Source: Kiritimatiellia bacterium (GTDB lineage: Bacteria; Verrucomicrobiota; Kiritimatiellia; UBA8416; JABMPJ01). From it: a stretch of DNA of 57,232 nucleotides. The translations under genes and the position numbers were made by a program. Location: contig JAOZSS010000003.1 of NCBI GenBank assembly GCA_029939545.1, positions 1 to 57,232 on the forward strand. Direction: 5' to 3'. Shown piece after piece: positions 1,818 through 56,698 of this stretch (positions are counted from its first letter, which is position 1; each line of letters opens with the position of its first letter). The notes beneath the pieces are model-generated. The model was given only the letters and a program-made list of their open reading frames with translations, did no database searches and had not been told where the DNA came from.

Positions 1818-4019
1818 CTATCCGGCACGGTCGATGGCGGCGGCGATGGCATCGGCGAGCTGGCGCATGACAATGGGTTTCTGGATAATGTCGGCGAACC
1901 CATCACGCAGGGCCTCGGCCTCGGTGTATTGCTGACTGTAGCCGGTGCAGAGGATAACCGGCAGGTCGGGCTGAAGTTCGGTGACCGCCTTGGCCAGTTC
2001 GCGCCCGCTGATACCCGGCATGGAGAGGTCGGTCACCACCAGATCGTAAGCGCCTGGCGATTGGCGCAGCATCGTCAGCGCCTCTTCGCCGTCGCAGGCG
2101 AGCGCGGGGGCGTAGCCGAGGGCACGCAACATCTTTACGGCCATCTGGGCCACGGCGGTTTCATCATCCACAAACAGCACCGACCGTCCGCTACCGGCGT
2201 GCAGATCCTGAGTGTCAGAGGCATCCTCGGTGGCCTGCTGCTCGACAACCGGCAGGACCACGTGGAAGGTCGTGCCTTCACCCAGTACCGAGGTGACCGT
2301 CAGCGCTCCCTTCAGCCCGACGATGATGCCGTGCACGACGGCGAGTCCCATGCCGGTGCCTTCCCCGCTCGGCTTGGTCGTGAAGAACGGTTCAAAAATC
2401 CGTTCGAGCGTGGCGACATCCATGCCGCAGCCGGTGTCCTTGACCCTGATGCGAAGATAGCGTCCCGGCTCCAGGTCGGGGAACTCGGACTGTGCGCGGG
2501 TGCCGATCACGAAATCGGCCACATGGACCTCGATCTCACCCCCGCTCTCTTTCATGGTATACCCGGCATTGGTGCAGAGGTTCATCATGACCTGGTGAAT
2601 CTGGGTGGGATTGCTGATGACGACGTCCTGGTCGGTCTTGATGATGCAGCTGACCTTCACACCATCGGGCACCGAGGACTGCTGCAGCTTGACGACTTCC
2701 TTGACGATCGGGATCAGGTGGACCGGCTTGTTCTCGTGTTCGTGCTGACGGCTGAACATAAGGATCTGTTGGACGAGGTCCTTGGCGCGATAGCTGGCCT
2801 TGTGGATCTCCTTCAGAAATTCCACGTTGGGTTCGGTGTCATCCATGCCGTGCAGCATGATCTCAGTGTAGCCGAGAATGGGCGTCAGGATATTGTTGAA
2901 GTCGTGCGCGATGCCGCCGGCCAGCGTCCCGAGCGCCTCCATCTTCTGGGCCTGCTGAAGCTGGCGTCCGCTGCGCTGGAGGGCTTCCTTGGTCTGAATG
3001 CGGCTGGTAATGTCCTGCACCTGCAGCAGGTAGCCGCGTGGCGCGTATTCGCGATCCATACCCAGGTTCAGCATCAATACATCAAGGTGTCCCGCTCCGC
3101 GTCGGCTGGTTACATAGAGGCCGTCGGTCCGCGCCTTATCGAAATCAATACTCATCTCGAACTGTGCCGTATCGCGCTGCTCGAGAACCCGGCGCATTCG
3201 CTCCGGAATAAACGGGTTCGCAAACGGATCGAATTGCGCGAACTGCTCGGTATCGGGCGCACCGAACGTTTTGAGGCAGGCCTGGTTGACGTTCAGAAGC
3301 TTGCCCGTGCCGTCGTAGAGTGCCACGCCGACCGGCGAGTGTGAGAAAAACTCCTCGAAGCGCCGCTCGCTTTCCTGTAGATCGCGCTTGGCCTTCTCGC
3401 GCTCGGAAACATCGTGTGCGGTGGAGATGATCATAGACTTGCCTTCCAGCTCGAAGGCGTGCGAATAGATCTCCACCGGGATGTGATCGCCGTCATGGGT
3501 CAGGAAGGTGCTGGTATATTCGGCATGGCCCTCGGCCAGGATGCGCTCAACCAGTTGGCGGACCGGGCGCACGGCAAAGGCGGTTTCACGGTCCATGATC
3601 TCGTCATCGGAAAGCGTGACCAGTTCGCTGCGGGTATAGCCGGTAATCGCGGAGGGTGTATCTGCGGTTTGAATCTCCAGCGGCGAGAGCTTGAGTAGCT
3701 TGTCGCGGCTGTAGCCCAGCGTCTCACACGCCACCACGTTCACCTCGGTAAAGTGGCCGGGCAGGCCGTCCTCGGTGAGTCCGTACATGAAGACCATGTC
3801 GGTGGTGTGGGCAAACAGAATGCGGTAGAGCCGGTCCTTAAGCACGAGGGCGGTCTCGGCCAAGACGCGGGCTTCGCGCTCGTTCTTCAGCTTGCCGCGC
3901 TCATAGAGGACGCGCAGTGAGTGCTGGCGTGCCTGCCGGAGAAGCAGAATATAGCCAGCGACACACGCTGCGATGAGTGTGATGGTGCCAACCAGAAATG
4001 CCAGCGCTACGCTGTTCAC
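1818..4019 (-). CDS. hybrid sensor histidine kinase / response regulator with PAS domains
   Basis: N-terminal TM helix, two PAS-like segments, H-box HDFNNILTPILGYTE, N/G boxes (DTGCGMD, GTGMGLAVVHG), C-terminal receiver (VLFVDDE...DLVVTDLSMPGISG). Confidence 0.9.
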   Translation of the reverse strand: MNSVALAFLVGTITLIAACVAGYILLLRQARQHSLRVLYERGKLKNEREARVLAETALVLKDRLYRILFAHTTDMVFMYGLTEDGLPGHFTEVNVVACETLGYSRDKLLKLSPLEIQTADTPSAITGYTRSELVTLSDDEIMDRETAFAVRPVRQLVERILAEGHAEYTSTFLTHDGDHIPVEIYSHAFELEGKSMIISTAHDVSEREKAKRDLQESERRFEEFFSHSPVGVALYDGTGKLLNVNQACLKTFGAPDTEQFAQFDPFANPFIPERMRRVLEQRDTAQFEMSIDFDKARTDGLYVTSRRGAGHLDVLMLNLGMDREYAPRGYLLQVQDITSRIQTKEALQRSGRQLQQAQKMEALGTLAGGIAHDFNNILTPILGYTEIMLHGMDDTEPNVEFLKEIHKASYRAKDLVQQILMFSRQHEHENKPVHLIPIVKEVVKLQQSSVPDGVKVSCIIKTDQDVVISNPTQIHQVMMNLCTNAGYTMKESGGEIEVHVADFVIGTRAQSEFPDLEPGRYLRIRVKDTGCGMDVATLERIFEPFFTTKPSGEGTGMGLAVVHGIIVGLKGALTVTSVLGEGTTFHVVLPVVEQQATEDASDTQDLHAGSGRSVLFVDDETAVAQMAVKMLRALGYAPALACDGEEALTMLRQSPGAYDLVVTDLSMPGISGRELAKAVTELQPDLPVILCTGYSQQYTEAEALRDGFADIIQKPIVMRQLADAIAAAIDRAG

Positions 4020-4579: not shown

Positions 4580-5305
4580 CTACTCCAGGTCGTAGAGGCT
4601 GTTGTCATCGGAAAGGAACCCGTATCTCTTGTCGAGTTTTCCGCTTGCGGCCGAGCTGGTATACCGCTCGCTGCGCGATTCAACGTGAGCATCAGCAAAC
4701 GCGACGTTGGTTCGGCCCCGATGGCGAAAGCCCTGTGTTCCCGATTTCGCCTGGGAGCCATCGCTGTCGAGCCGCCCCGGGAAGGGCGATCGCATAAACT
4801 TGTTGGCCCCGCTCTCGTATTCGGCGTCTCCGAACAGCGCGCACTGGCTGGGATCGGCGATCATACCGAGGCTGGCGGATTGCGTCGAATGGGCCATGTT
4901 GCCACCGTCGCGTCTGAGGATGCGTCCCCCGATATAGCTGGCGTTGTAGTTGTAGCCGGTATACGGATCATCCTCCCACATCGCCTCACCATGGAAAGAC
5001 GGGCATTGTTGTATCCGGTACCGTGCTCCCATTTCCCACAGGTATGCCTCCCAGGTCTTGGTGGTGCCGGTCGAGAAGTCGCGTGTGTAGGCGGGAGGAA
5101 ACTGGCCGTGCTCAGACTCGTATATCAGAGCTGCCAGCGCCATCTGGCGCAGATTGCCGACACAGGCAATGCGTCGTGCTTCCTCCCGCGCCGTGTGCGC
5201 TGCCGACAGGGAGAGCGCCGCCAGGACACCGATGATCGCCATCACGACCAAAAGCTCCAGCAGCGTGAATCCGGCTGTGTTTCTTCTCTGCGCGTCACTC
5301 ATCAT
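4580..5305 (-). CDS. prepilin-type N-terminal cleavage/methylation domain protein, DUF1559 (H-X9-DG) pseudopilin-like
   Basis: N-terminus GFTLLELLVVMAIIGVLAAL (class III signal). C-terminal HRGRTNVAFADAHVE resembles the H-X9-DG motif. The start overlaps the stop of the upstream gene by 11 nt. Confidence 0.85.
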   Translation of the reverse strand: MMSDAQRRNTAGFTLLELLVVMAIIGVLAALSLSAAHTAREEARRIACVGNLRQMALAALIYESEHGQFPPAYTRDFSTGTTKTWEAYLWEMGARYRIQQCPSFHGEAMWEDDPYTGYNYNASYIGGRILRRDGGNMAHSTQSASLGMIADPSQCALFGDAEYESGANKFMRSPFPGRLDSDGSQAKSGTQGFRHRGRTNVAFADAHVESRSERYTSSAASGKLDKRYGFLSDDNSLYDLE

Positions 5306-7640
5306 GGCGCACCCGGAGCCTCAAAAAAGTACCGCCACTATCGACCACGGCGCTATCCGCCATCGGCAGGACTCCGTTGGAGGGAGTGGATGCAGCCGCA
5401 GTGCTCTGGATGCCATCCGTGGACCAGTCAGGACTCAGCAGACTGACCGTGCGAACCGCTCCAACATCCACGTCGGGAGCGTGGGTTGACACTGTGTACG
5501 ACACGTCAAGCCGGGGGGGTGTTGAGGCCCTGTCCAGCGCAGCCGCAAAGGCCGCTTCTCCCGTTCCGTTGGTAGGGCTACGGCCCAGGCCGTATGCCAT
5601 GAGGTTGACGATGCCATCGTGGTCCGCATCGGCCCCGTCGGCTTCCTCGGCGGGTGCGCCCATCCATGCAAAATGGCACGTGCGCCAGAGCTGTTGCGGG
5701 AGCCCTGGGGCCACATCGGCCATGGCGTCGACTTCGGGGGCCAGGGAGACGGTTGGCGCGATGCGGACGTAGCGTATCCATTTGTGTCCTGTGGCAGGGC
5801 AGGGCGCAAGGGGGAGGTCCCCGATATCGAAGCCGGTGCCGCCAGCCGAGCCGCGATAACGTTGTGCCAACGCGCCTACGCTCTCGCCCTCCCAGTCGTC
5901 GGGACCAACGGATGGGTCGGGCGGAACCGTTGGGTCCGTGGCACCCCCCCACCAGGCGTTGGAATGGCCGCTGTACGTATGGCCGGGATCATAGACGCGC
6001 CCAAGCGTCGGCATGAAGCGGTCGCACCGGTTGCTGACAAAAGCATGCCATGTTACGCCGTCCTGGCTTACCGACACGCCCCCCTCATCCGTTTCGCAGA
6101 CCGCAGAGACCGTGGTATTGGTAGGTGTCCCATTCTCCCACTCTTCCCCTGTTCCGATCAACTGCATGGCATTGCCGAAGAGCAGGAAATCCACGCCATA
6201 GGGATTGGCGGGGTTATCCAGTACTTTGTGGTCGAAGGCCAAAACCAACTCGCCCCCGAGCCCCACGGTTACAAGCTCGTGAGCTCGGAATGGGGCATAG
6301 ACCGGGACGACAGGTACGGCGTTGGTGAAATCAATGGCGCCATCGTCTCCGGTCGTATCCACCGTTGGCCGACCCAGGGCGGCGGTTGAGTCTGTGAACG
6401 GGTCGCCCGTAATCCAGTCGAATCCGATGCCCGTGCCCTCAGTATAGGTGACGACGCTGTCGCCGTAAGGATAGTGCAGTGCCGCGGACGGCCAGCCCGG
6501 GGTACGGGCCACCGTGCCGGTGGAACGGCTCCACACATCCCATGAGCCATCGTACAGCATCCGGTTGTCCAGCCCGGCAATGGTGTCAACAGGGGTTGCT
6601 TCGAAGTAGATGTCTGAGTAGTCGATTGTCCAGTGCGACCAGTTGGCGCTCTGCGCCGTTGCGTTTGTGTGGTCGGTTGAGAATGATGAAAGCACCACGT
6701 CATGGGCGTGGGTTCCCGGCAGGATATCGCCATGGCGGACCGGTCGCTGGTAGGCGCATTCGGCCAGCACGAGGCCGTCGGGCGTGTTCGTCAGCGATCC
6801 GGTGAGCGCGCTGTCTGCGTTGGTGACCGCTTGCCACATATCGAGCGCAGTGGCCTCACCGTCCCATCGGTAGCCCCATGCCAGTGCATGACGCCGCGAG
6901 CGGTCATGCCAGTCCATCACCAGGGCGGCGCGGTTGGAGCCCGCGCCTGTCCAGAACTCGATCTCGTCGAGCGCGAAGCCTGCCATCGGGATCGCCGGCA
7001 GTGGCGATCCAGGCATGGCGGCAACACACTCGACCGGTGGCGGGTTCGATCCGACCGGGAAGGTGACGACGGCTGGCCGCCAGCCATCCCAGTCGCCATC
7101 TTCCAATTGACGCACCCCGAAACCACTACCGGACTCGATCCACGATCCGCCGCTGAACGGATCGCCTACACCGAGGGAATAGTGCCAGTACTGGCTGTAC
7201 CACCCCTCTTCATAATGGTCATCCGGATCATCGGCGTAGCCGGTCTCGGTGCCGATTCCCGCCGTGCCCGGGTGGAACGCGCCGCCATCGCCATCAACGT
7301 CGTAGCCCACGCCGTAGACCACTTGGCCGAGGAACCCGGAGGTGTAGATGAAGCGGGCGAGGCGGGGATCTGCCGCCACAACGGCCTCAAACATGTCTCG
7401 CCCTGTCATGGTGCCATTCCATCGATAGCCCCACGCCAGACTGACCGGATCGATGCCGTCGTTCCAGTCAAGAACGAGAGCGGCACGATTGGTGCCGTGC
7501 CCAACCCAGAAGCGGATGTCTTCCAGGTCGAACTCGGCATGGACCTGTGCGGTGGCCAGGAGTCCAAGGCAGGCCCGAAGGACAGCCTTGGACACGGGTC
7601 GCCTACAGCACAACGCGGATCTGAACAAATCTGTCATCAT
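5295..7640 (-). CDS. large secreted protein of unknown family; tandem WGYRW repeat modules plus a domain shared with the upstream gene
   Basis: Listed ORF runs to 7775, but a signal-peptide-like start MMTDLFRSALCC...LLATAQVHA begins at 7640. Two about 60-aa repeats (F-W-x-G-x-G-x-NRAALV-x-DW...LAWGYRW-x-G). Central region similar to 7603..9186 (LGRPT...LV-x-G-x-GG-x-L...FDH...NP-x-G-x-D...FGN). C-terminal DADHDG motif. Confidence 0.75.
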   Translation of the reverse strand: MMTDLFRSALCCRRPVSKAVLRACLGLLATAQVHAEFDLEDIRFWVGHGTNRAALVLDWNDGIDPVSLAWGYRWNGTMTGRDMFEAVVAADPRLARFIYTSGFLGQVVYGVGYDVDGDGGAFHPGTAGIGTETGYADDPDDHYEEGWYSQYWHYSLGVGDPFSGGSWIESGSGFGVRQLEDGDWDGWRPAVVTFPVGSNPPPVECVAAMPGSPLPAIPMAGFALDEIEFWTGAGSNRAALVMDWHDRSRRHALAWGYRWDGEATALDMWQAVTNADSALTGSLTNTPDGLVLAECAYQRPVRHGDILPGTHAHDVVLSSFSTDHTNATAQSANWSHWTIDYSDIYFEATPVDTIAGLDNRMLYDGSWDVWSRSTGTVARTPGWPSAALHYPYGDSVVTYTEGTGIGFDWITGDPFTDSTAALGRPTVDTTGDDGAIDFTNAVPVVPVYAPFRAHELVTVGLGGELVLAFDHKVLDNPANPYGVDFLLFGNAMQLIGTGEEWENGTPTNTTVSAVCETDEGGVSVSQDGVTWHAFVSNRCDRFMPTLGRVYDPGHTYSGHSNAWWGGATDPTVPPDPSVGPDDWEGESVGALAQRYRGSAGGTGFDIGDLPLAPCPATGHKWIRYVRIAPTVSLAPEVDAMADVAPGLPQQLWRTCHFAWMGAPAEEADGADADHDGIVNLMAYGLGRSPTNGTGEAAFAAALDRASTPPRLDVSYTVSTHAPDVDVGAVRTVSLLSPDWSTDGIQSTAAASTPSNGVLPMADSAVVDSGGTFLRLRVRHDE

Positions 7641-9186
7641 TGCTGTTCCCGTACCAAAAGGTGTTGGTGCCTGTTGGACTGCGCCGGACGTTCCCATCCA
7701 GTACCATCCACCCGTTTGTAAGGCTGCTTGTGTGTTCCACTTGGAACGGAATATCTGAGCCGTTGGTACCGCCAAGCCACGTCACGTAGTTCGAGTCGCC
7801 TACGCGTCCCATGTCGGTGATATGGAAGAACGAATCGATGTTGTCGGCATCCGTTCCGGACAGAAACTCCTCCCATGCACAGAATCCATCGTGGTCGATA
7901 TCTGCGAGCGCGGCGGCGTCAAACGTGGGGTAGGTGGCGTTGGTAAGCCCGTTCTCAACCAGCCAGTGAACCGGGGTCTCATTGGTTGCCATGTCCGGAT
8001 CGAATACGGCCGTTATGCTTCGATGGCGATCCATGCACAAACCCATTGTATGAGTTGCCGTGTCACCTTGTGTGGCACCGGTCCATTCTGCGAAATAGAA
8101 ATAGGTTCCCGGCGTGGCCACGAGCGTGATATTCGTCCCGTGCTGATGGGTCCCGTTCGACAGGTTCACATGGCCGCGCCCTTCCGTGTTCACCGTGAGC
8201 GTAAACGCCGCCACCGCAGCGACATCGCTGAACCCGTCGATCTCAGTGGACCATCCCTGACCGAGGGCCTGTGTGACCATGACATACTGAATCCAGTCGA
8301 GCCCGGTCGCGGAGATGTCAACCGGAGCGCCGCCGCCAGCGCCGTTATAGCCAGCCAGCATTGTGGGGTAGTCCGATCCGACCCAGGCCAGGTTCGTGTC
8401 TACCGGCATGAGAAAGTCCGAGGGTGTTGTGCCGTCCGATCCGTAAGCCGACGAGGTGTCGCGGTAGCCCTGGCTCGGGTAAGCGCCATCGGCGGTGATC
8501 GCCGTGATCTCGTGCCAGTTGGTGCCGTTTTGACTGACCAGGATCGTGCCCGGGTCGTTATCCAGGGCCGCTACCTCTCCGTCGGGATAGCTTGAGTCCC
8601 AGAAGAAGCTGTTGCCAAAGATAATCAAGTCGGCACCGAACGGGTTGAGCACGTCGTTGCTCACGGGATGATCGAAGCGAACAGCCAGGTAGCCCCCCGA
8701 GCCGATCGAAACAAGCTCGCTATCCTGGTAGGGGCTAGAGAACATGGTGATATCACCCCAGGCACCATCACGTGTCGGCCGGCCGAGCGACGAGGCTGTG
8801 TTTGTGTAGGGTTCGCCCGTCCAGTAGTCGGTTGCTACGTTCGTTCCTGACATGTAGCCCACGACCTCGTACGCCCACGGTCCTCCCGTGAACTCGGCCG
8901 TAATCGAGCGGGCACCATCAATCGGAACATCAACCTGATTTCCATTGATCGTGCATCCGTTGGTGTTGCCGCCCCAGCCCAGAAACGCGCAGTGTTCATC
9001 CGGGGTAGCAGTTAGCGTGTTTGTAGTCCCCAGTGTGTACAATCCCGTTCCGGGTGACACTGTGCCATTACCGCCAACCACGTCCACCGTGAGAAGCACA
9101 TCTTGTCCCTCGGTTCTGGTCGCCACGCTACTACAGGCCACAACCGCCAATACGAGTCCCATCCATCTCTTTATCACGACCGGCAT
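7603..9186 (-). CDS. secreted protein of unknown family with two InlB-B-repeat-like modules; paralogous central domain to 5295..7640
   Basis: Signal peptide MPVVIKRWMGLVLAVVACSSVA. Two modules of the type VxGGNGTVSPG...TLTATP...F-x-GW (bacterial repeat domain). Central SSLGRPT...SIGSGGYLAVRFDHPV...NPFGADLIIFGNSF domain. C-terminal DIDHDG. GGGAGG directly upstream of the ATG; the GTG at codon 4 is an alternative start. Confidence 0.75.
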   Translation of the reverse strand: MPVVIKRWMGLVLAVVACSSVATRTEGQDVLLTVDVVGGNGTVSPGTGLYTLGTTNTLTATPDEHCAFLGWGGNTNGCTINGNQVDVPIDGARSITAEFTGGPWAYEVVGYMSGTNVATDYWTGEPYTNTASSLGRPTRDGAWGDITMFSSPYQDSELVSIGSGGYLAVRFDHPVSNDVLNPFGADLIIFGNSFFWDSSYPDGEVAALDNDPGTILVSQNGTNWHEITAITADGAYPSQGYRDTSSAYGSDGTTPSDFLMPVDTNLAWVGSDYPTMLAGYNGAGGGAPVDISATGLDWIQYVMVTQALGQGWSTEIDGFSDVAAVAAFTLTVNTEGRGHVNLSNGTHQHGTNITLVATPGTYFYFAEWTGATQGDTATHTMGLCMDRHRSITAVFDPDMATNETPVHWLVENGLTNATYPTFDAAALADIDHDGFCAWEEFLSGTDADNIDSFFHITDMGRVGDSNYVTWLGGTNGSDIPFQVEHTSSLTNGWMVLDGNVRRSPTGTNTFWYGNSNDDRFVQIRVVL

Positions 9187-9314
9187 CCTCCCTTTGGTTT
9201 AGTAGTCAAGCGGTCGCGGAAGCGGACCCAAGCGGGGTGATAAGGGGAGGGAAGCACACGGCACCCCAATCGCGAGGGCCGTCATCATGCCTATGGGTCC
9301 GCATTTCGCGGCCC

Positions 9315-9341
9315 AAAAAAACCTCCGCTCTCCACTGGAGG
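9315..9341 (-). terminator. intrinsic terminator acting as riboswitch expression platform
   Basis: Minus-strand RNA CCUCC-AGUGGAGAGC-GGAGG followed by U7. The 5' arm region (ACCUUCGUCCUCC) can alternatively pair with GGGAGGAAGGU inside the aptamer (plus coordinates 9449-9459). Confidence 0.6.
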
Positions 9342-9415
9342 ACGAAGGTCTGTCTGCACACTAGACTGTCTAGCTATGCGGGTGGCCCTCGATCCGGCGA
9401 AGAAGCCTTAATCCC

Positions 9416-9562
9416 CGCAAGAGCACGTCTTCTGGCTTACGGTATCAAACCTTCCTCCCGCCTTCTTATCTCCACTCGGAGACAATGGCCTGCTAGGAGG
9501 TCGTAACCGATTACAGCGGCGCGACCGCGTCCGATTCTCACGGACTTCCGTCTACTCTTACG
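9416..9562 (-). promoter_or_regulatory. cobalamin (B12) riboswitch aptamer
   Basis: Minus-strand RNA GACGGAAGUCCGUGAGAAUCGGACGCGGUCGCGCCGCUGUAAUCGG matches the conserved core (compare E. coli btuB leader AGGGAAUCCAGUGCGAAUCUGGAGCUGACGCGCAGCGGUAAGG). GGCCAUUG...GAAGGCG internal element. B12 box AAGCCAGAAGACGUGC. 10-bp P1: CGUAAGAGUA / UGCUCUUGCG. Confidence 0.85.
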
Positions 9563-9598
9563 CTATCGACCGGGAAACTCCCCCGTCGATGTGGGTGA

Positions 9599-9626
9599 AT
9601 TTCACACAGTGACGGAAGGGAGTCAA
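9599..9626 (-). promoter_or_regulatory. putative sigma-70-type promoter for the riboswitch transcript
   Basis: Minus strand TTGACT - 16 nt - TGAAAT, placed about 30 nt upstream of the aptamer P1. Confidence 0.3.
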
Positions 9627-9680: not shown

Positions 9681-10070
9681 TCAAGTATGCCCGAAGGGCA
9701 CCTCCTCGATTCGGCCCTTGACGGTGACCCATAGGGTGGTGACTTCGCAGTCGGGAAAGGCATCTTTGATGCGGTCGTAGGCCAGGCGCAGGTGGATGAA
9801 CTGTTCGCCCTTCTCAGAGGGATTCCCGGCGCAGTCTTCGTGACCGATGATCGCGATCGAGGTGGATCCGTGTTTGCCAACCGAGATTTCCACGCAGCGC
9901 ATGATCGCATCGATAGCCGTCAAGTCATCGCCCTTGGCCAGAATCAGGTTCGGCCCCGGCGCCGTGATGGTGTCGACATACTCCGCATGGAAACGTTTCT
10001 GCAGAAACTTGTTTACCGGTAGCTGCATCCGGCCGTCCATGCAGTTGATGACCGTACAAAATGAACCCAT
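9681..10070 (-). CDS. small beta-carbonic-anhydrase-like protein (CxDxR ... HxxC)
   Basis: 129 aa. CMDGRMQLP and IIGHEDCAGN resemble the beta-CA zinc-ligand signatures. The protein is much shorter than canonical beta-CA. Confidence 0.4.
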   Translation of the reverse strand: MGSFCTVINCMDGRMQLPVNKFLQKRFHAEYVDTITAPGPNLILAKGDDLTAIDAIMRCVEISVGKHGSTSIAIIGHEDCAGNPSEKGEQFIHLRLAYDRIKDAFPDCEVTTLWVTVKGRIEEVPFGHT

Positions 10071-10109
10071 AGCATTACCTCCACAATGGAAAGCTGAAAT
10101 CCGAAAACT

Positions 10110-13100
10110 TCATACCGACCACGTTTTCGAAGTCTCAATCAGTTCCATGATCTCGTCAAGCTTCTCGTCCACATCCTCCGCCCTCAGCCGTGGGAAGCGG
10201 GTGCCCTGCATCAGGTAGTCGTGGCGGCCGGTCAGCATGAGTTTGCCGTCGCGTGTCTCAACGCGGCGGATCCCGTGGTCGGCGGCGCGCATCCTGACCT
10301 GCCCGATAGACAGGAGACGCTGCGCTGCGGTGGGAAGCGGGCCGAAGCGGTCGACCCATTCTTCTTCCAGCCGGGCCAGGTCGCTGGCGTCGGATGCTTC
10401 GGCCAGTTGACGATAGACGCCTACGCGCAGCCCTTCGTCGCTGATGTAGCTGTAAGGGATGCCGACGGTCGAAGGCGATGGCTCGCCCACAGGGGAGAGA
10501 TCAAGGAAATCCAATGTCACGTCAACATCCACCAGGCGCGGGACCGGCTCGCCTTTCAGCCGGGCCACGGTGCGCTTCAGAAGCTGGCAGTAGAGGCCGA
10601 AACCAATCGCCGTGATGTGTCCGCTCTGCGCGGTGCCGAGCAGGTTGCCTGCCCCGCGGATCTCCAAGTCGCGCAGGGCAAGGTTGAACCCGGCGCTGAG
10701 CGAGGAATACTTGCGCAGGGCGCCGATACGCTTTCGTGCATCCGGGTCCACGTGGCCCTGTGGCGGGAGCAGCAGGATGGCGTAAGCCTTGCGGCTGGAG
10801 CGTCCGACGCGGCCGCGAAGCTGGTAGAGGTCGGCAATGCCAAACCGGTCGGCCCGGTCGATCAGGATCGTGTTGGCGCGGGGAATGTCCATCCCGCTTT
10901 CGATGATGGTGGTGCAGACGAGCACGTCGAACTCACCGTTGACGAAGCGCGACATCACGCCTGCCAGCTCACCGGGCGCCATCTGGCCATGTGCAATCTC
11001 AAAACGGGCTTCGGGTATCAGCTTGCGCAGCCGGTTGCAGATCGATTCGATGGTCATCACGCGGTTGTGAAGGTAGAAGACCTGTCCCTCGCGGTTGATC
11101 TCGCGCAGGATGGCCTGCCGCACGGTTGCTTCGCTATAGCGTATGGCGGTGGTATCGATCGCGAGGCGCTCCAGGGGTGGGGTCTGTAGCAGGCTCAGGT
11201 CGCGCGCCCCGGTCATACTCATGTAGAGCGTGCGGGGGATCGGCGTGGCGGTCAGGGTCAGTACATCTACCAATGTGCGGATCTGTTTGAACGCCTCCTT
11301 GTGGGCCACGCCGAAGCGTTGCTCTTCGTCGATAATGACGAGCCCCAGGTTCTCGAAGATGACGCCTTCCTGGAGCAGGGCGTGCGTGCCGATGACGATA
11401 TCGACTTTGCCCTCGGCCATGTGTTTCAGTGTGGCCGCCCGTTGGCCCTGGCTGCGGAACCGGCTGAGCATCTCGATCTGAATCGGATAGTCGGCCATGC
11501 GGGCGGCAAACGTCTCGAAGTGTTGCTGGGCCAGCACGGTGGTGGGCACGAGTACGGCCACCTGTCGTTGACCCATAACGGCCTTGAAGGCGGCTCGCAT
11601 GGCTACCTCGGTTTTGCCATACCCGGCATCGCCGCAGAGCAAGCGGTCCATCGGGCGGGTAGATGCCATGTCCTGTTTGACGGCCCCGATCACGTCATGC
11701 TGATCCTGTGTCTCGCGATAGGGAAAAGCAGCCTCGAACTCATGCTGCCATGCCGTGTCTCCGCCGAAGGCGTGGCCCCGTTTCAGATTCCGCCTGGCCT
11801 GGGTTTCGAGCATCGTGGCGGCCATGTCGGCAATGGCCGCTTCGGCGGCGGCGCGATCCCGCTCCCAGCGGCGGCCGCCCAGCTTGTGGAGCGGAGCGGA
11901 CGCGCGCGCGATGCCCACATAGCGGCTGAGCAGGTGCGCCTGTGATACGGGCACATGTAGCCGGGCGTTGTCCGCATATTCGACCGTGAGGACTTCCTGG
12001 TTTTGGCGATTGAAGGTGATCTGGCTGAGTCCTTCGTAGCGACCGATGCCGTGCTCGACATGGACCACCAGGTCGCCCGGCTCCAGGTCGACCATCTCGG
12101 CGATGCGCGCGGTTGGCCGGGGCCGCGGCTTGCCGGTGGCGGTGAGCGGGTCATAGCGGCGCCCTTGCTGCTTGTGGTACCCATAGAGGTCGGGTTGCGC
12201 CACCACAGTCACGCCGAGCGCCTCGCTGCGGAACCCTTCCGACAGTACGGCGGTTACCAGGTTCAGTTTGCGATGGCGGCTTGTCGCGTCGTAGCGGAGC
12301 GAAGACGGACGGCCGCTGCCAACGGTCTCTTTCAGTGTGGTTTGCAGGTGCTGAACCGCCGCCGCGGTATCGAGCGCAATGACTATGGTGTCGCCCTTGT
12401 CGGCGTCGGCCTGGAGTGCGGTCAACAGGCGGCGCCTGGCTTGGTCGAGGAGATCCGGCTGTAGGACCCCCTTGGCCTCGGGAAGCAGGTCGGGGAGGGG
12501 ACCGACATCGGTCAGAATTTGCTGGGAGACTATGCCCCCCTGCGACCTCGTGTCGCAGGAGGCCAAGATCTCTGTTTCCTGCGACACCAGGTCACAGGGG
12601 AGCCACTCGCCGATCCTGACCTGTAGCGTGTCTGGAAGAGCGTACAGTGTTTTCAGAAGCCGATCGGTCTGGTCAATATCGCCGCCCCGCCGCTGTTCCC
12701 TCGCGGCTTTTTCGAATAACTCGCCGTGATGATGCAGGGCATCGGGATCGGACCATGCGACCAGACTGTGTGGTGGAAGGTAGGCAAGGATGCTGCCGCG
12801 TTCCCCGTGGTCATGCCACTCACCCGCCGGGGGGACCGTAGCTTCGGTCAGTTTCTCCAGAGAGCGCTGCGTGCCAGGGTCAAAGGTCCGGATAGATTCA
12901 ACCGTATCGCCAAAGAACTCGATTCGGATCGGCCACGCATGACTTAGGGGCCAGACGTCGAGTAGTCCGCCCCGCATGGCGGCGTGCCCTTTTTCATCGA
13001 CCACATGTCCCAGGTCGTATCCGCCATCCGCCAGCGATTCAACCAGGAGGCCCGGGTCGATTTCCATCCCACAGGCGAGCTGGTGCGTGCGACGGCGAAG

Positions 13101-13526
13101 GTGATCGGGCGAGAGGGTCTTCGGGAGCAGGGCCTGGATGCAGGTGACAATGATGGGCGCATGCCCCGGCGCGCTGCGGTGGGCGTCCAGCGTGGCGAGA
13201 ACGGTGAGGCGGTGTCCGGCAATCTCGGCATCGGGTGGATCATCGGTGCTGGGAATCGTGCTCCATGGTGGCAGGTAGAGAACGGGGGCCGCCTTCGCCG
13301 GAGTGAAGCCGAGCAGATCCTGATGTATGGTGTCGAGCGCCTCCTGGCCATCACAGATCCAGATCAGCGGACGGTCGAAATGGGAGCGCAACGCCCAGAG
13401 AAGCGCGGCCTCGGCAGCGGCCGGCAGGGCGGGCGTGGTGAGGGATGTCAGATCAGCAGGAAGGTCTTGGAGAAGCGTCTCGATGCGACCGACGACTGTA
13501 CTCAGTGTCTTTTGTCGCGCGGCCAC
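10110..13526 (-). CDS. mfd: transcription-repair coupling factor
   Basis: 1138 aa. CarD-like segment (GDLVVHVEHGIGRYEGL), SF2 helicase motifs (CGDAGYGKTEVAMRAAF, DEEQRFGV), TRG/translocation region, C-terminal D7-like domain. Confidence 0.95.
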   Translation of the reverse strand: MAARQKTLSTVVGRIETLLQDLPADLTSLTTPALPAAAEAALLWALRSHFDRPLIWICDGQEALDTIHQDLLGFTPAKAAPVLYLPPWSTIPSTDDPPDAEIAGHRLTVLATLDAHRSAPGHAPIIVTCIQALLPKTLSPDHLRRRTHQLACGMEIDPGLLVESLADGGYDLGHVVDEKGHAAMRGGLLDVWPLSHAWPIRIEFFGDTVESIRTFDPGTQRSLEKLTEATVPPAGEWHDHGERGSILAYLPPHSLVAWSDPDALHHHGELFEKAAREQRRGGDIDQTDRLLKTLYALPDTLQVRIGEWLPCDLVSQETEILASCDTRSQGGIVSQQILTDVGPLPDLLPEAKGVLQPDLLDQARRRLLTALQADADKGDTIVIALDTAAAVQHLQTTLKETVGSGRPSSLRYDATSRHRKLNLVTAVLSEGFRSEALGVTVVAQPDLYGYHKQQGRRYDPLTATGKPRPRPTARIAEMVDLEPGDLVVHVEHGIGRYEGLSQITFNRQNQEVLTVEYADNARLHVPVSQAHLLSRYVGIARASAPLHKLGGRRWERDRAAAEAAIADMAATMLETQARRNLKRGHAFGGDTAWQHEFEAAFPYRETQDQHDVIGAVKQDMASTRPMDRLLCGDAGYGKTEVAMRAAFKAVMGQRQVAVLVPTTVLAQQHFETFAARMADYPIQIEMLSRFRSQGQRAATLKHMAEGKVDIVIGTHALLQEGVIFENLGLVIIDEEQRFGVAHKEAFKQIRTLVDVLTLTATPIPRTLYMSMTGARDLSLLQTPPLERLAIDTTAIRYSEATVRQAILREINREGQVFYLHNRVMTIESICNRLRKLIPEARFEIAHGQMAPGELAGVMSRFVNGEFDVLVCTTIIESGMDIPRANTILIDRADRFGIADLYQLRGRVGRSSRKAYAILLLPPQGHVDPDARKRIGALRKYSSLSAGFNLALRDLEIRGAGNLLGTAQSGHITAIGFGLYCQLLKRTVARLKGEPVPRLVDVDVTLDFLDLSPVGEPSPSTVGIPYSYISDEGLRVGVYRQLAEASDASDLARLEEEWVDRFGPLPTAAQRLLSIGQVRMRAADHGIRRVETRDGKLMLTGRHDYLMQGTRFPRLRAEDVDEKLDEIMELIETSKTWSV

Positions 13527-13574
13527 CTTGTCATCCCCCTTCTGACCTCGGATCTCAGACTTCCGACCTCCGGG

Positions 13575-15005
13575 CTAATACAGCTTCCGCATGTGCGATG
13601 GCGGAATCTTGAGAACGAGGCGGTACTTGGCGATGGTGCGGCGGGCAATCTTGATGCCTTGCTCCTCGAGCATCTTGAGGATTGTCTGATCGGAGAGGGG
13701 CTTGGCGGAGTCTTCTTCCGCCACCATCGTGGCAATCATGTCTTTGACGGTCTTGTTGGAGACCTGGCTGCCATCGGCCGTTTTGATGCCAGGTGTGAAG
13801 AAGTACTTCATCTCGAAAATGCCGCGCGGTGTACGCATGTACTTGCCGTTGACGGCGCGGCTGACGGTGGTTTCGTGAACGCCGACCGCAGTGGCAATTT
13901 CCGCCATCGTCAGAGGCCTCAGATGCGAGACGCCCTGGTCGAGGAACGCGACCTGCCGATCCACGATCTCGGACGCGATACGGAAGATGGTCTTCTGGCG
14001 CTGGTGAATACTCTTGATCAGGAACGCCCCGGCGCGGATCCGGTCACGTACGTACTCCTTCACCTCGTCACTCGAGTCAGCGGCTTTGAGCAGGCGGCGA
14101 TAGTGGCGGCTGATCCGGATGTGGGGGAGCTGATCGTCATCCATGATCACGATATACTTGCCCTCCACCTTCTGGACGACGATCTCGGCGATGACATAGG
14201 TGGTCACTTCTTCCGAGTAGATGCGCCCGGGCTTGGGATCGAGCGTGGCGAGGAAGGCCGTGGCTTCCTGGAGCTCTTCCTGGGTGAGCTTGAGTTGCTT
14301 GGCCAGATCGGTGAGGCGCCTCGCACCGAGCTTGTCGAGGTGCTTGTCCACGAGGGTTTCGACCAGTGTGTCGTGTTTGCCGAGGCGCGTAAGCTGGAGC
14401 ATCAGGCATTCGCGCAGGTCGCGTGCGCCGACCCCGGTGGGGTGGAAGTCTTGGATCAGGTTGAGGATATCTTCTAGGCGGTGGAGGTCGACATTGGAGG
14501 TGGCCGCTAGATCGTCGAGCGTCCCGGTCAGGTAGCCATCGTCGTCGATGCTGCCGATGATCATTTCGCCGAGGCGCAGAGCGTCGTCCTCCAGCTCGGT
14601 GAATTGGAGCTGTTCGAGGAGGTGTTCCTGCAGACTTTGCTGTTGGGGAAGGGAGTTGAGCAGAAACTGGCGGCGCTCGTCATCGTCGGAGGTGTAGGGC
14701 TGGCTCTCCTGGTTCTGGAAGAAGTACTCACGCCACTCTTCGTCCAGGTGAGCGAGGGCTTCGAACTCCTTGTCGAAGTCCATGGCTTCGGCCTTCTCGG
14801 TCTCGCCGTCGCCGGGTTCGATCTCGATCGGCTCGTTATCGATCGGCTGCTCTTCGATCGTGGGGTTTTGCTCAATCTCCTGCTGAATCATGGTGCGCAG
14901 GTCCATAATCGGGAGCTGGAGCATCTCCAGGGATTGACGCAGCTGGGGCGCCAGCACCATCTGAAGGCGCTGTTGCTGCGATAAAGCTAGCGTTTGGCTT
15001 GGCAT
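13575..15005 (-). CDS. rpoN: RNA polymerase sigma-54 factor
   Basis: 476 aa. N-terminal LxxQQxLxMxPQLxQSLxxLQLP region I, HTH, and RpoN box ARRTIAKYR near the C-terminus. Confidence 0.95.
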   Translation of the reverse strand: MPSQTLALSQQQRLQMVLAPQLRQSLEMLQLPIMDLRTMIQQEIEQNPTIEEQPIDNEPIEIEPGDGETEKAEAMDFDKEFEALAHLDEEWREYFFQNQESQPYTSDDDERRQFLLNSLPQQQSLQEHLLEQLQFTELEDDALRLGEMIIGSIDDDGYLTGTLDDLAATSNVDLHRLEDILNLIQDFHPTGVGARDLRECLMLQLTRLGKHDTLVETLVDKHLDKLGARRLTDLAKQLKLTQEELQEATAFLATLDPKPGRIYSEEVTTYVIAEIVVQKVEGKYIVIMDDDQLPHIRISRHYRRLLKAADSSDEVKEYVRDRIRAGAFLIKSIHQRQKTIFRIASEIVDRQVAFLDQGVSHLRPLTMAEIATAVGVHETTVSRAVNGKYMRTPRGIFEMKYFFTPGIKTADGSQVSNKTVKDMIATMVAEEDSAKPLSDQTILKMLEEQGIKIARRTIAKYRLVLKIPPSHMRKLY

Positions 15006-30622: not shown

Positions 30623-31384
30623 ATGATTCGGTTTGAGAAAGTAACGAAGGTGTTGGGCGGGAAGCCGGTGCTAGATGGCATCGACTTCGAGATCAACCGT
30701 GGTGAGACCTTCTGCATTGTGGGTGCGTCCGGAGCGGGCAAGAGTGTGACGCTTAAACATATGGTCCGACTCATGACGCCTGATGATGGCCGCATCCTCG
30801 TTGCAGGCGATGACGTCGGCTCTGCTACGGGAGCAGATCTTGCACGGGTTAGAAATCGTTTCGGCTACCTATTCCAAAGCGCGGCCCTGTTGGCATGGCT
30901 GTCTGTGGCCGAGAATGTGGCGCTACCTCTGCGCGAAAAGCATGACGTCGACGAGGACGAGATTCTTGACCGTGTGCACAAGACGCTAGCCATGGTTGGC
31001 CTGGAGAACGATGGCGCGAAAGTGCCGTCCGAGATCTCGGGCGGCATGCGCAAGCGCGCCGGACTGGCGCGTGCCATTATCGAGAGCCCCGAGATCATCT
31101 TGTACGATGAGCCGACGTCTGGACTCGACCCCGTGACCTCGCGCACGATCGACCGGTTGATCGGTAAGCTTCGGGAAGACCTGGGCGTTACCAGCGTGGT
31201 GGTGACCCATGATCTGCACAGTGCCCTGGCGATTGGCACGCGAATCGCTATGCTGAACCGGGGTCGCATAGCCGAGATAGCAACACCTGAAGCCTTTATG
31301 GAATCTTCGAGCGAAGAAGTGCAGCGTTTCCTGGCCGCTCAGTATATCACGAAGGAAGCGCCGTGGGAAAGGGACCAGCAATGA
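30623..31384 (+). CDS. mlaF: ABC transporter ATP-binding protein (MlaF-like)
   Basis: Walker A GASGAGKS, signature SGGMRKR, Walker B ILYDEPTSGLD. Confidence 0.9.
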   Translation: MIRFEKVTKVLGGKPVLDGIDFEINRGETFCIVGASGAGKSVTLKHMVRLMTPDDGRILVAGDDVGSATGADLARVRNRFGYLFQSAALLAWLSVAENVALPLREKHDVDEDEILDRVHKTLAMVGLENDGAKVPSEISGGMRKRAGLARAIIESPEIILYDEPTSGLDPVTSRTIDRLIGKLREDLGVTSVVVTHDLHSALAIGTRIAMLNRGRIAEIATPEAFMESSSEEVQRFLAAQYITKEAPWERDQQ

Positions 31385-56613: not shown

Positions 56614-56698
56614 GGCGGGGTACTCAAGTGGACAACGAGGAGAGACTGTAAATCTCTTGGCTATGCCTTCGAAGGTTCGAATCCTTCCCCCGCCACCA
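56614..56698 (+). tRNA. tRNA-Tyr (anticodon GUA), CCA encoded
   Basis: GGCGGGG acceptor / CCCCGCC-A-CCA. Anticodon loop CUGUAAA. Long variable arm. T-arm GAAGGTTCGAATCCTTC. Nearly collinear with E. coli tRNA-Tyr. 85 nt. Confidence 0.95.

Follow-up and report, generated by a model that had tools for sequence, protein, structure and literature searches.

The minus strand of the window (the whole 57,232-nt stretch of DNA analyzed here) carries, at 9405-9597, a genuine but ordinary cobalamin riboswitch. It lies in the 5′ leader of a B12-related three-gene operon on the same strand, and we put the probability at roughly 0.6 that it acts there as a transcriptional OFF switch, using a P13 hairpin, an antiterminator and an intrinsic terminator. 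B12 abundance would most likely stop transcription of the three genes, which most likely encode envelope proteins for corrinoid capture. All features of the leader and the operon described below are on the minus strand.

The aptamer has class I architecture

A cmscan search against Rfam bore out the earlier note's proposal of a minus-strand cobalamin riboswitch. RF00174 (Cobalamin) matched at 9405-9597 with 80.9 bits (E 2.1e-18), against a gathering score of 31.5 bits, and the alignment spanned the full model (positions 1-189); a match of this strength is far beyond chance. All motifs that the note had quoted were present on this strand, including GGGAGGAAGGU at 9459-9449 and the U7 run at 9321-9315. 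It had also dismissed a stretch resembling RNase P CR-I as a look-alike, and in agreement with this no RNase P covariance model reached threshold anywhere in the window.

The aptamer core GGAAGUCCGUGAGAAUCGGACGCGGUCGCGCCGCUGUAA was read from the sequence at 9549-9511, and the B12 box AAGCCAGAAGACGUGC was located at 9438-9423 by sequence and cmscan. P3 (ACG/CGU), the P4 hairpin and CUGUAA line up with the RF00174 consensus. The peripheral P6 extension that characterizes class I (GCCACUG...GAAGG) is present as GCCAUUG (9489-9483) and GAAGGC (9465-9460), with a covarying hairpin (9483-9468) between them. Judged by this P6-extension-bearing architecture, the riboswitch is probably of the class I, AdoCbl type. 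The segment 9416-9438 combines the B12 box with the 3′ strand of P3 (CGU) and the 3′ strand of P1 (GCUCUUGCG), as indicated by sequence, cmscan and relatives. Across eight relatives, P1, P3, P4 and the P6-extension hairpin were retained, with compensatory change at 13 pairs, and P3, the P4 hairpin and CUGUAA were invariant or compensated. Unconstrained minimum free energy (MFE) folds of the leader failed to reproduce the aptamer and were kept for local hairpins only.

The true aptamer, from P1 to P1, spans 9562-9416 within the RF00174 match. The cmscan register for P1 was rejected; it put P1 on another hairpin further 5′ (9590-9565), with mismatches marked there. We preferred the pairing of CGUAAGAGU (9562-9554) with GCUCUUGCG (9424-9416) because it emerged from the comparative fold of relatives, among which three of its pairs show GC/AU swaps. 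By sequence this helix has 9 bp, one fewer than previously claimed, and a 2-nt bulge separates it from P3. The hairpin that cmscan mis-assigns to P1/P2, AUCGACGGGG...CCCGGUCGAU (9565-9590, MFE fold), lies outside the aptamer, and a hairpin of different sequence occupies the same place in three related leaders (L005, L010 and L001).

Well-known class I, AdoCbl-type members of RF00174 are the E. coli btuB riboswitch and the riboswitch of the Thermoanaerobacter tengcongensis structure. The element in the window resembles the class in its full-length model match, B12 box, P3-P6 four-way junction, GUGAGAAUC P4 loop and GCCAUUG...GAAGG extension, as well as in its position in the same-strand 5′ leader of a B12-linked operon; it differs in the extra hairpin 5′ of P1. 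It also departs from the C-rich RF00174 consensus at L5, the expected kissing-loop partner of L13, which the cmscan alignment places at 9520-9524. The window has UCGCG there, a variant common to at least 89 contigs of the PVC group; all 89 PVC contigs that matched the core pattern read YCGCG at L5.

The intergenic gap holding the leader measures 494-503 nt, and not the 440 nt given before, counted from the upstream stop codon at 9683-9681 to a downstream start at either GUG 9177 (which yields the 524-aa database protein P0001) or AUG 9186. A putative -35 box of the leader promoter, TTGACT, lies at 9621-9626. TTGAC is found equally far upstream of the aptamer in the L001, L003, L005, L007 and L010 leaders; a scan with the sigma-70 consensus found no full promoter. 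The same riboswitch precedes the orthologous gene cassette in other loci (L001-L005, L007-L012 and L174-L177) and was kept in every fetched relative with upstream sequence; orthologous operons that carry it belong to uncultured Kiritimatiellia/Verrucomicrobiota.

A covarying intrinsic terminator follows the aptamer

About 70 nt downstream of P1, folding and covariation define an intrinsic terminator at 9315-9351, consisting of a stem (9349-9322) and the U7 tract (9321-9315). The stem, ACCUUCGU-C-CUCC AGU GGAG-A-GCGGAGGU, has a folding energy of -18.5 kcal/mol with its flanks. In relatives it was 99.1% paired, with 17 double-change cells and a score reached by 0 of 500 shuffles, while pairing in slid registers fell to 56-65%. 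The CCUCC-loop-GGAGG-U7 hairpin of the earlier note thus stands as a terminator, with a longer stem than was described, and what had been called its 5′ flank is in fact the terminator's own 5′ arm (ACCUUCGUCCUCC, 9349-9337). A simple terminator scan missed the hairpin at 9315-9351; we nevertheless took it as real because both folding and the relatives show it. A hairpin plus U-tract with a ΔG of -10 or lower occurred in 41 of 73 PVC leaders. That intrinsic terminators function in the host phylum is assumed.

P13 is the better-supported candidate for the antiterminator partner

Between P1 and the terminator, folding and relatives place the P13 hairpin at 9384-9407 (GGCUUCUU, loop CGCCGGAUC, GAGGGCC). 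Its stem was 97.8% paired in nine relatives, and a lower stem of GCGGG (9418-9414) with CCCGC (9382-9378) is possible. Most of the 73 PVC leaders have such a hairpin after P1, one strand rich in pyrimidines and the other in purines, with CGC(G) in the loop. The loop CGC (9399-9397) is complementary to the GCG of L5. The window's L5 and CGCCGGAUC can form only three Watson-Crick pairs (CGC:GCG), whereas other PVC leaders have CGCG(A) in the loop, and in the P13 register of lowest energy, some of the CGC is taken up by the stem. L5 is invariant in the leader set, so covariation is uninformative for the L5-L13 kissing loop; in the outgroup leader L128, an L5 of CCUCG pairs with a loop containing CGAGG.

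The predicted antiterminator pairs the loop end and 3′ side of P13 (GGAUCGAGGGC, 9385-9395) with GACCUUCGUCC (9350-9340) in the 5′ arm of the terminator. This helix has 10 bp in the window and was 87.5% paired in relatives, compared with 27-61% in slid registers. Its covariation is modest. The observed score was reached by 14 of 500 shuffles with nine sequences, and adding two leaders to the block alignment weakened the signal to 57 of 500. A 5-bp core is almost invariant and hence carries little information; in L010 one G-C pair of the core has become A-U, and end pairs are compensated. The duplex energy beat shuffles (z < -1.64) in 12 of 33 leaders, and across these 33 leaders the pairing was locus specific, with 13 of 300 permutations as good. 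An intervening hairpin, GCAUAGCUAGACAGUCUAGUGUGC (9356-9379, by folding), is positioned to cap the antiterminator.

With the terminator 3′ arm yet to be made, folding of the platform gave -30.5 kcal/mol for the antiterminated fold (the MFE) versus -25.0 kcal/mol for the P13 fold in silico, and the complete terminated fold reached -42.9 kcal/mol. These modeled energetics would be compatible with a kinetic switch. In the predicted antiterminated fold, P13 is unzipped by a helper helix between GCGGGGA (9418-9412) and UCUUCGC (9403-9397), which is present only in the closest relatives (L005 and L010).

In the mechanism that we propose, binding of a corrinoid would close P1 and bring L5 into a kissing interaction with the CGC of the P13 loop, which would hold together a hairpin that is weak by itself. 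The terminator 5′ arm would thereby be available to its 3′ arm, and RNA polymerase would stop at U7. With no ligand bound, GCGGGGA (the tail of the 3′ strand of P1) would pair with the 5′ side of P13, and the freed 3′ side would pair with the terminator 5′ arm; with the intervening hairpin capping this antiterminator, the operon would be transcribed. For the corrinoid riboswitch of Priestia megaterium metE, compensatory mutagenesis has established this wiring, the 3-bp kissing loop included (PMC10327014). Both leaders have P13 right after P1, an L5-L13 kissing loop of 3 bp (predicted in the window), a structured insert capping the antiterminator, and a P13 that is weaker by itself than the antiterminator (in silico for the window). 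They differ in phylum and cargo and are unrelated in sequence, and the layout in the window is a predicted one. Unlike in metE, the 3′ strand of P1 in the window has a tail that can pair with the 5′ side of P13, which may provide a second coupling.

Alternative readings of the expression platform

The antiterminator could instead be formed by an aptamer strand, as was originally proposed. Here the 3′ strand and internal loop of the P6 extension (GGGAGGAAGGUUUG, 9459-9446) would pair with CAGACCUUCGUCCU (9353-9340) in the terminator 5′ arm until ligand binding locked the strand and released the terminator. In the window itself, the claimed complementarity of GGGAGGAAGGU(UUG) to the terminator 5′ arm holds well. 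The helix has 13 bp with one G.G mismatch, its energy ranges from -20.2 to -23.6 kcal/mol (the latter by RNAduplex) with z = -2.5 against shuffles, and when the whole leader as far as the terminator 5′ arm is folded without constraints, the MFE contains this pairing; the P13-derived duplex has about -10 kcal/mol, versus -20 to -24 kcal/mol for this helix. The Rfam consensus puts the strand partly within an internal loop, a 6-bp core (GAAGGU:RCCUUC) was 91% paired in 11 relatives, and alternative pairings derived from the aptamer are mentioned in the literature for other corrinoid riboswitches. The relatives nevertheless speak against it. No covariation was found in the 11 related leaders, where 311 of 500 shuffles reached the score, and six disruptions on the aptamer side (alignment column 19 in L010; column 20 in L066, L091, L080 and L174; column 21 in L175) went entirely uncompensated. 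In L175, for example, the aptamer GAAGG has become GACGG while CCUUC stays unchanged. Nor was the matching locus specific, with 192 of 300 permutations as good and only 2 of 33 leaders at z < -1.64. The conservation of the two strands has other causes, membership of the aptamer core for one and, for the other, pairing with P13 and the terminator 3′ arm, and the helix would require unzipping of a preformed P7-like ACCUCC:GGGAGG pairing that is expected to fold with or without ligand. We have therefore demoted this pairing, which is not refuted, and regard it as unlikely. On the comparative record and the experimental precedent, the P13 3′ side appears to be the better-supported partner of the terminator arm. 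A pairing between the B12 box and the terminator, visible by eye in L010 (GAAGAC:GUCUUC), fails in the window and was rejected.

Control might also be exerted on translation, as the main or an additional mode. In translational cobalamin riboswitches of the env8 and btuB type, L13 carries the ribosome-binding site (RBS). In this reading, L5 would kiss a putative distal hairpin predicted by folding (ACGGCCCU, loop CGCGAUU, GGGGUGCCGU; 9258-9282), the kiss would redirect pairing among GGGGUG, an anti-Shine-Dalgarno (anti-SD) run CUUCCCUCCCC (9254-9244) and the Shine-Dalgarno (SD) GGGAGG (9192-9187), and the terminator would be a mere attenuator. The CGCGA of the distal loop is complementary to L5 at all 5 nt and occurs three times in the 150 nt of 9313-9165, against a background of once per 502 nt across the window. 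Of 73 PVC leaders, 40 had two or more CGCG-loop hairpins (1.55 per leader versus 0.35 in shuffles), the second often being GCUCC-CGCGNAA-GGAGC right at the RBS, and the window adds to its anti-SD-like run a pairing of CGCGACCG with CGGUCGUG across the start codon. However, the distal hairpin of the window contains no SD and lies about 80 nt from the start codon, whereas the decision point nearest the aptamer is the terminator, and the hairpin is transcribed only after the termination decision. The closest orthologous leaders, L010 and L001, lack this hairpin, L005 shows it only loosely, and the leader beyond the terminator folded no better than shuffles (z = -0.55). We consider this reading improbable. 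Least probable is a real aptamer beside a hairpin with U7 that terminates constitutively or has nothing to do with it, in which case regulation would take another route, such as Rho or RNA stability, or be absent. The terminated state is indeed the global MFE of the platform, and the simple scan did not flag the hairpin. But the 41 of 73 PVC cobalamin leaders noted above share a terminator in this position whose 5′ arm is conserved in sequence and whose 3′ arm covaries, and conserved genes would be shut off by a terminator that acted constitutively between the promoter and the operon.

The operon encodes candidate corrinoid-capture proteins

The first regulated gene has an SD, AAGGGAGGA (9194-9186), and a likely GUG start (9177-9175). 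This gene, A (7603-9177), encodes a probable lipoprotein of 524 aa, 100% identical to P0001, with two InlB B-repeat (Flg_new_2) domains. Gene B (5295-7640) encodes a 781-aa secreted protein with two N-terminal "SLAWGYRW" repeats, and gene C (4580-5305) encodes a 241-aa pseudopilin-like protein with a prepilin N-methylation site, DUF1559 and H-X9-DG. In searches of Pfam, NCBIfam and PDB sequences, the only matches for the three proteins were Flg_new_2, N_methyl, DUF1559 and H-X9-DG; protein B had none, and none of the three matched a B12-binding family of Pfam or NCBIfam (BtuG, BtuH/DUF4465 or transcobalamin-like). A candidate match of protein A to Amuc_1099 was discarded as far under the cutoff (17 versus 50 bits). 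The model of full-length protein B showed an unlocalized Foldseek resemblance to the transcobalamin beta domain, which may serve as a lead only: a model of the isolated repeat 2 had no Foldseek neighbor, and the transcobalamin-like matches were not reproduced. The "SLAWGYRW" repeat could be an undescribed riboswitch-linked domain.

The cassette is riboswitch linked across PVC bacteria. In relatives, btuF-btuD-btuC (with or without cobA) or cbiMNQO lies directly behind it, and no btuB was seen in the loci fetched. A tblastn search for btuFCD and cobA elsewhere in the window returned only a generic ABC ATPase at 30692-31321. Because relatives have only btuFCD behind the cassette, the module might replace the BtuB/BtuG outer-membrane step. 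BtuG and BtuH (DUF4465) of Bacteroides are surface proteins that capture B12 (PMC6143338, PMC8941943 and PMC13398666). The likeness lies in accessory envelope proteins encoded beside core transporters in riboswitch-controlled B12 uptake loci, and one difference in the pseudopilin that belongs to the cassette of the window. Our literature search for DUF1559, pseudopilins or Kiritimatiellia in connection with cobalamin returned nothing relevant. With the switch taken as conventional, we tentatively suggest, at somewhat less than even odds, that the cargo is a PVC-wide corrinoid-capture module made up of a lipoprotein, a secreted "SLAWGYRW"-repeat protein and a DUF1559/H-X9-DG pseudopilin, and that it is possibly new. 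A second and weaker suggestion of novelty concerns the leaders: many in the PVC group, perhaps that of the window too, would use one L5 with two alternative L13 hairpins, one for termination and one at the RBS.

For uncultured Kiritimatiellia/Verrucomicrobiota, the riboswitch itself is one more well-annotated example and changes little else. As predicted here, the P13-based terminator platform, demonstrated earlier in a Firmicute, also occurs in the PVC group, which should aid automatic annotation of expression platforms. The uncharacterized proteins of the operon are of more interest than the switch. As they lie behind a B12 riboswitch, these three proteins of unknown function become candidates for corrinoid acquisition, and for the DUF1559 pseudopilins, whose huge expansion in the PVC group is unexplained, a link to B12 would give a first testable role.

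A class-I-type cobalamin riboswitch precedes the operon

The earlier note placed a cobalamin riboswitch on the minus strand and proposed a search with the RF00174 (Cobalamin) covariance model. In cmscan, this model matched 9405-9597(-) over its full length with a score of 80.9 bits, compared with a gathering score of 31.5 (E = 2.1e-18). Direct reading of the minus strand recovered every motif described, namely, the aptamer core (9549-9511), GCCAUUG (9489-9483), GAAGGC (9465-9460), and the B12 box (9438-9423). No RNase P model matched anywhere in the window, and the one further Rfam match was a tRNA gene at 56614-56695 (+) (RF00005, 55.4 bits) with a long variable arm, whose anticodon loop, CUGUAAA, suggests tRNA-Tyr. 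With a putative promoter element, TTGACT, at 9626-9621 and a U7 tract ending at 9315, the range 9315-9626 runs from putative promoter through terminator. The element is a genuine class-I-type cobalamin riboswitch, equipped with an intrinsic terminator, and its type is already known and no surprise for specialists.

The closing helix P1 is present but has 9 bp rather than the 10 bp first described, with CGUAAGAGU (9562-9554) paired with GCUCUUGCG (9424-9416); a 2-nt bulge separates P1 from P3. When eight relatives were folded comparatively, three P1 pairs showed GC/AU swaps. The register given by cmscan, which placed P1 on a separate 5′ hairpin at 9590-9565 and flagged mismatches there, was rejected. 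Located 5′ of P1, that hairpin is not part of the aptamer, and its position but not its sequence is kept in three related loci (L001, L005, and L010); the Rfam alignment takes it as P1/P2, with mismatches.

The intergenic gap measured 494 to 503 nt, not 440 nt. Upstream, the stop codon of a Pro_CA_2 gene lies at 9683-9681. Given the 524-aa length of the identical database protein, GUG 9177 is the most likely start of the first downstream gene. The same-strand upstream neighbors (9681-15005, minus strand) are the Pro_CA_2 putative carbonic anhydrase gene (Pfam) and two long open reading frames, 10110-13526 (1,138 aa) and 13575-15005 (476 aa), that resemble mfd and rpoN by eye alone. The stretch from the Pro_CA_2 gene to the riboswitch promoter showed no terminator.

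The terminator is conserved among PVC leaders

The hairpin and U7 tract were found on the minus strand as the earlier note described. Its CCUCC/GGAGG stem is part of a longer one, ACCUUCGU-C-CUCC AGU GGAG-A-GCGGAGGU (−18.5 kcal/mol with flanks), and what had been called the 5′ flank of the hairpin is the terminator's own 5′ arm. A consensus terminator scan returned no sites in the riboswitch leader region. In 41 of 73 nonredundant cobalamin leaders from PVC-group contigs, a U tract follows a hairpin of −10 kcal/mol or lower; in PVC terminators the sequence of the 5′ arm (RCCUUC...) is conserved and the 3′ arm is variable. We aligned 11 leaders sharing the window's type of P13, the hairpin directly after P1, in gap-free blocks anchored on motifs, with variable linkers taken out. 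In this alignment, 99.1% of the terminator helix was paired and 17 cells carried double changes; no shuffle out of 500 reached any main measure, and slid registers were 26 to 66% paired. By these comparative measures, the terminator is real and under selection, and the proposal that the riboswitch switches a terminator was right.

A P13-based antiterminator is favored

Directly 3′ of P1 lies a weak hairpin, GGCUUCUU[CGCCGGAUC]GAGGGCC (9407-9384, minus strand), which has the position and appearance of P13/L13. In nearly all PVC leaders, the same place is occupied by a hairpin with a pyrimidine-rich and a purine-rich side and a CGC(G) loop, and CGC(G)(A) is the complement of the aptamer loop L5. 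The P13 5′ side (UUCUUCG) is nearly a copy of the terminator 5′ arm (ACCUUCG), and each can pair with the P13 3′ side (CGAGGG). Folding of the platform in the state preceding transcription of the terminator 3′ arm gave a minimum free energy (MFE) of −30.5 kcal/mol, with an antiterminator formed by GGAUCGAGGGC (9395-9385) and GACCUUCGUCC (9350-9340) and capped by a hairpin at 9379-9356. In the same fold, the end of the P1 3′ strand (GCGGGGA, 9418-9412) pairs with the P13 5′ side (UCUUCGC, 9403-9397) as a helper helix. Forcing P13 to form gave −25.0 kcal/mol, 5.5 kcal/mol worse, so P13 can prevail only with external stabilization, of the kind that a ligand-dependent L5-L13 kissing loop would provide. 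The complete terminated fold reached −42.9 kcal/mol. In the Priestia megaterium metE corrinoid riboswitch, the same wiring was proved by compensatory mutagenesis, and the kissing loop has 3 bp (Procknow and colleagues, PMC10327014). The window's riboswitch would share the pairing of the P13 3′ side with the terminator and has a putative L5-L13 kissing loop of just 3 bp, and it is most likely wired like the metE platform.

The earlier note had instead paired an aptamer strand, GGGAGGAAGGUUUG (9459-9446), with the terminator-side CAGACCUUCGUCCU. The complementarity is real in the window, where this helix has 13 bp with one G·G mismatch (−20.2 to −23.6 kcal/mol as a duplex), is the pairing picked by unconstrained MFE folding of the whole leader, and is stronger than the P13-based helix, whose bare duplex has about −10 kcal/mol. 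The aptamer strand is nevertheless probably the wrong partner. Its 88% pairing in the 11 leaders arises only because both sides are conserved, and its covariation score was reached by 311 of 500 shuffles; all six cells with aptamer-side changes were broken without compensation. In one relative (L175), GAAGG has become GACGG, yet the terminator arm is still CCUUC and still matches its own P13 3′ side. The P13 3′ side-terminator helix was 87.5% paired, compared with 27 to 61% in slid registers, with one core G-C-to-A-U swap and compensation at the end pairs; 14 of 500 shuffles reached its covariation score with nine sequences and 57 of 500 with eleven. Across 33 nonredundant leaders, the P13-based duplex beat shuffles (z < −1.64) in 12, compared with 2 for the aptamer-terminator duplex, and it was specific to its locus (13 of 300 permutations equally good), while the aptamer-terminator duplex was not (192 of 300). 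From these sequence comparisons, the P13-based helix itself is not strongly proven. Since its support is modest, we favor the P13-based antiterminator by only roughly 3:1, and both pairings may contribute in the window.

A second CGCG-loop hairpin is common in PVC leaders

Past the terminator, a distal hairpin (9282-9258, minus strand) presents the loop CGCGAUU, in which 5 nt are perfectly complementary to L5 (UCGCG). CGCGA occurs three times on the minus strand in the 150 nt past the terminator (9313-9165; sites at 9310, 9274, and 9218), compared with once per 502 nt in the window. An anti-SD-like run (9254-9242) is also present, and pairing of CGCGACCG with CGGUCGUG spans the start codon. 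At least two CGCG-loop hairpins are present in 40 of 73 PVC leaders (1.55 per leader versus 0.35 in shuffles), the second often being GCUCC-CGCGNAA-GGAGC at the ribosome-binding site (RBS). This pattern implies that one L5 may have two alternative L13 partners in many PVC leaders, and the frequent placement of the second hairpin at the RBS suggests that transcriptional and translational control are combined in the group. Individual leaders (L035, L040, L054, L058, L065, L075, L087, L090, L096, and others) have one such hairpin beside P1, together with a terminator, and the other at the RBS. In the window, about 80 nt separate the distal hairpin from the start codon. The hairpin is absent from the closest orthologous leaders, and the folding of the post-terminator leader does not surpass that of shuffles (z = −0.55); the hairpin's role here is a lead only.

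Scanning one genome per species with an aptamer-core pattern returned 89 contigs. Almost all of these contigs are labeled Kiritimatiellia, Verrucomicrobiota/Opitutales, Lentisphaerae/Victivallales, or PVC group, so an uncultured Kiritimatiellia-like bacterium is the probable source of the window. The window's aptamer belongs to a PVC-wide variant with L5 = YCGCG. Three loci, L066 (2236-2576, minus strand), L091 (5744-6080, minus strand), and L174 (about 300-820), carry, upstream of the cassette described below, two complete tandem cobalamin aptamers spaced by about 300 nt, the first with a terminator platform and the second with an SD-sequestering platform. In L007 (about 3740-3840), one aptamer is followed by two near-identical tandem terminator hairpins (GACCUUCAUU...GAGGGU-U tract).

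The riboswitch marks an uncharacterized three-gene cassette

The three products of the operon (4580-9177, minus strand) are a probable lipoprotein bearing InlB B-repeats, a 781-aa protein of no known family (protein B), and a DUF1559/H-X9-DG pseudopilin (protein C). Homologues of the first protein (57 to 69% identity) lie on contigs with the same cassette, consisting of an InlB-B-repeat protein, an approximately 780-aa protein without a Pfam family, and a DUF1559/N-methyl pseudopilin-like protein, and RF00174 precedes it in all loci with enough sequence. No btuFCD genes were found in the window. Directly behind the cassette, L001, L003, L005, and L175 carry btuF-btuD-btuC, sometimes with cobA/btuR, and L172 carries cbiMNQO in their place; the fetched loci showed no btuB. 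In protein C, a prepilin cleavage/methylation site is accompanied by DUF1559 and the H-X9-DG motif. Of 91 PVC riboswitch instances (L014 to L102), 23 have a DUF1559-like pseudopilin gene downstream in the same orientation, compared with 1 that has it upstream. In full-text literature searches, no paper was found to connect cobalamin with DUF1559, pseudopilins, or Kiritimatiellia.

Protein B had no Pfam, NCBIfam, or PDB sequence match. Its N-terminal repeats (6636-7400, minus strand) form a "SLAWGYRW" repeat domain without a Pfam family. Relatives of this repeat are encoded in 40 metagenome loci (L104 to L145), of which 23 have a same-strand cobalamin riboswitch (RF00174 or RF01689), mostly just upstream; this marks the repeat as a B12-linked domain. 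In L131 (3797-4246), a cobalamin riboswitch is followed at once by a c-di-GMP-I riboswitch before the gene for a relative of the N-terminal region, and in L116 a c-di-GMP-II-GAG element lies nearby on the opposite strand. A Foldseek search with the full AlphaFold model of protein B (pLDDT, 85.9) matched at least 10 transcobalamin entries. One match was to the isolated beta domain 5np4 (target TM score, 0.65; probability, 1.0), with an E value of only 0.02 and, for this full-length model, no localized region; isolated repeat 2 had no PDB neighbor. The cassette may be an undescribed corrinoid-capture module, and this uncharacterized, riboswitch-marked cassette is a more interesting subject for follow-up than the riboswitch.
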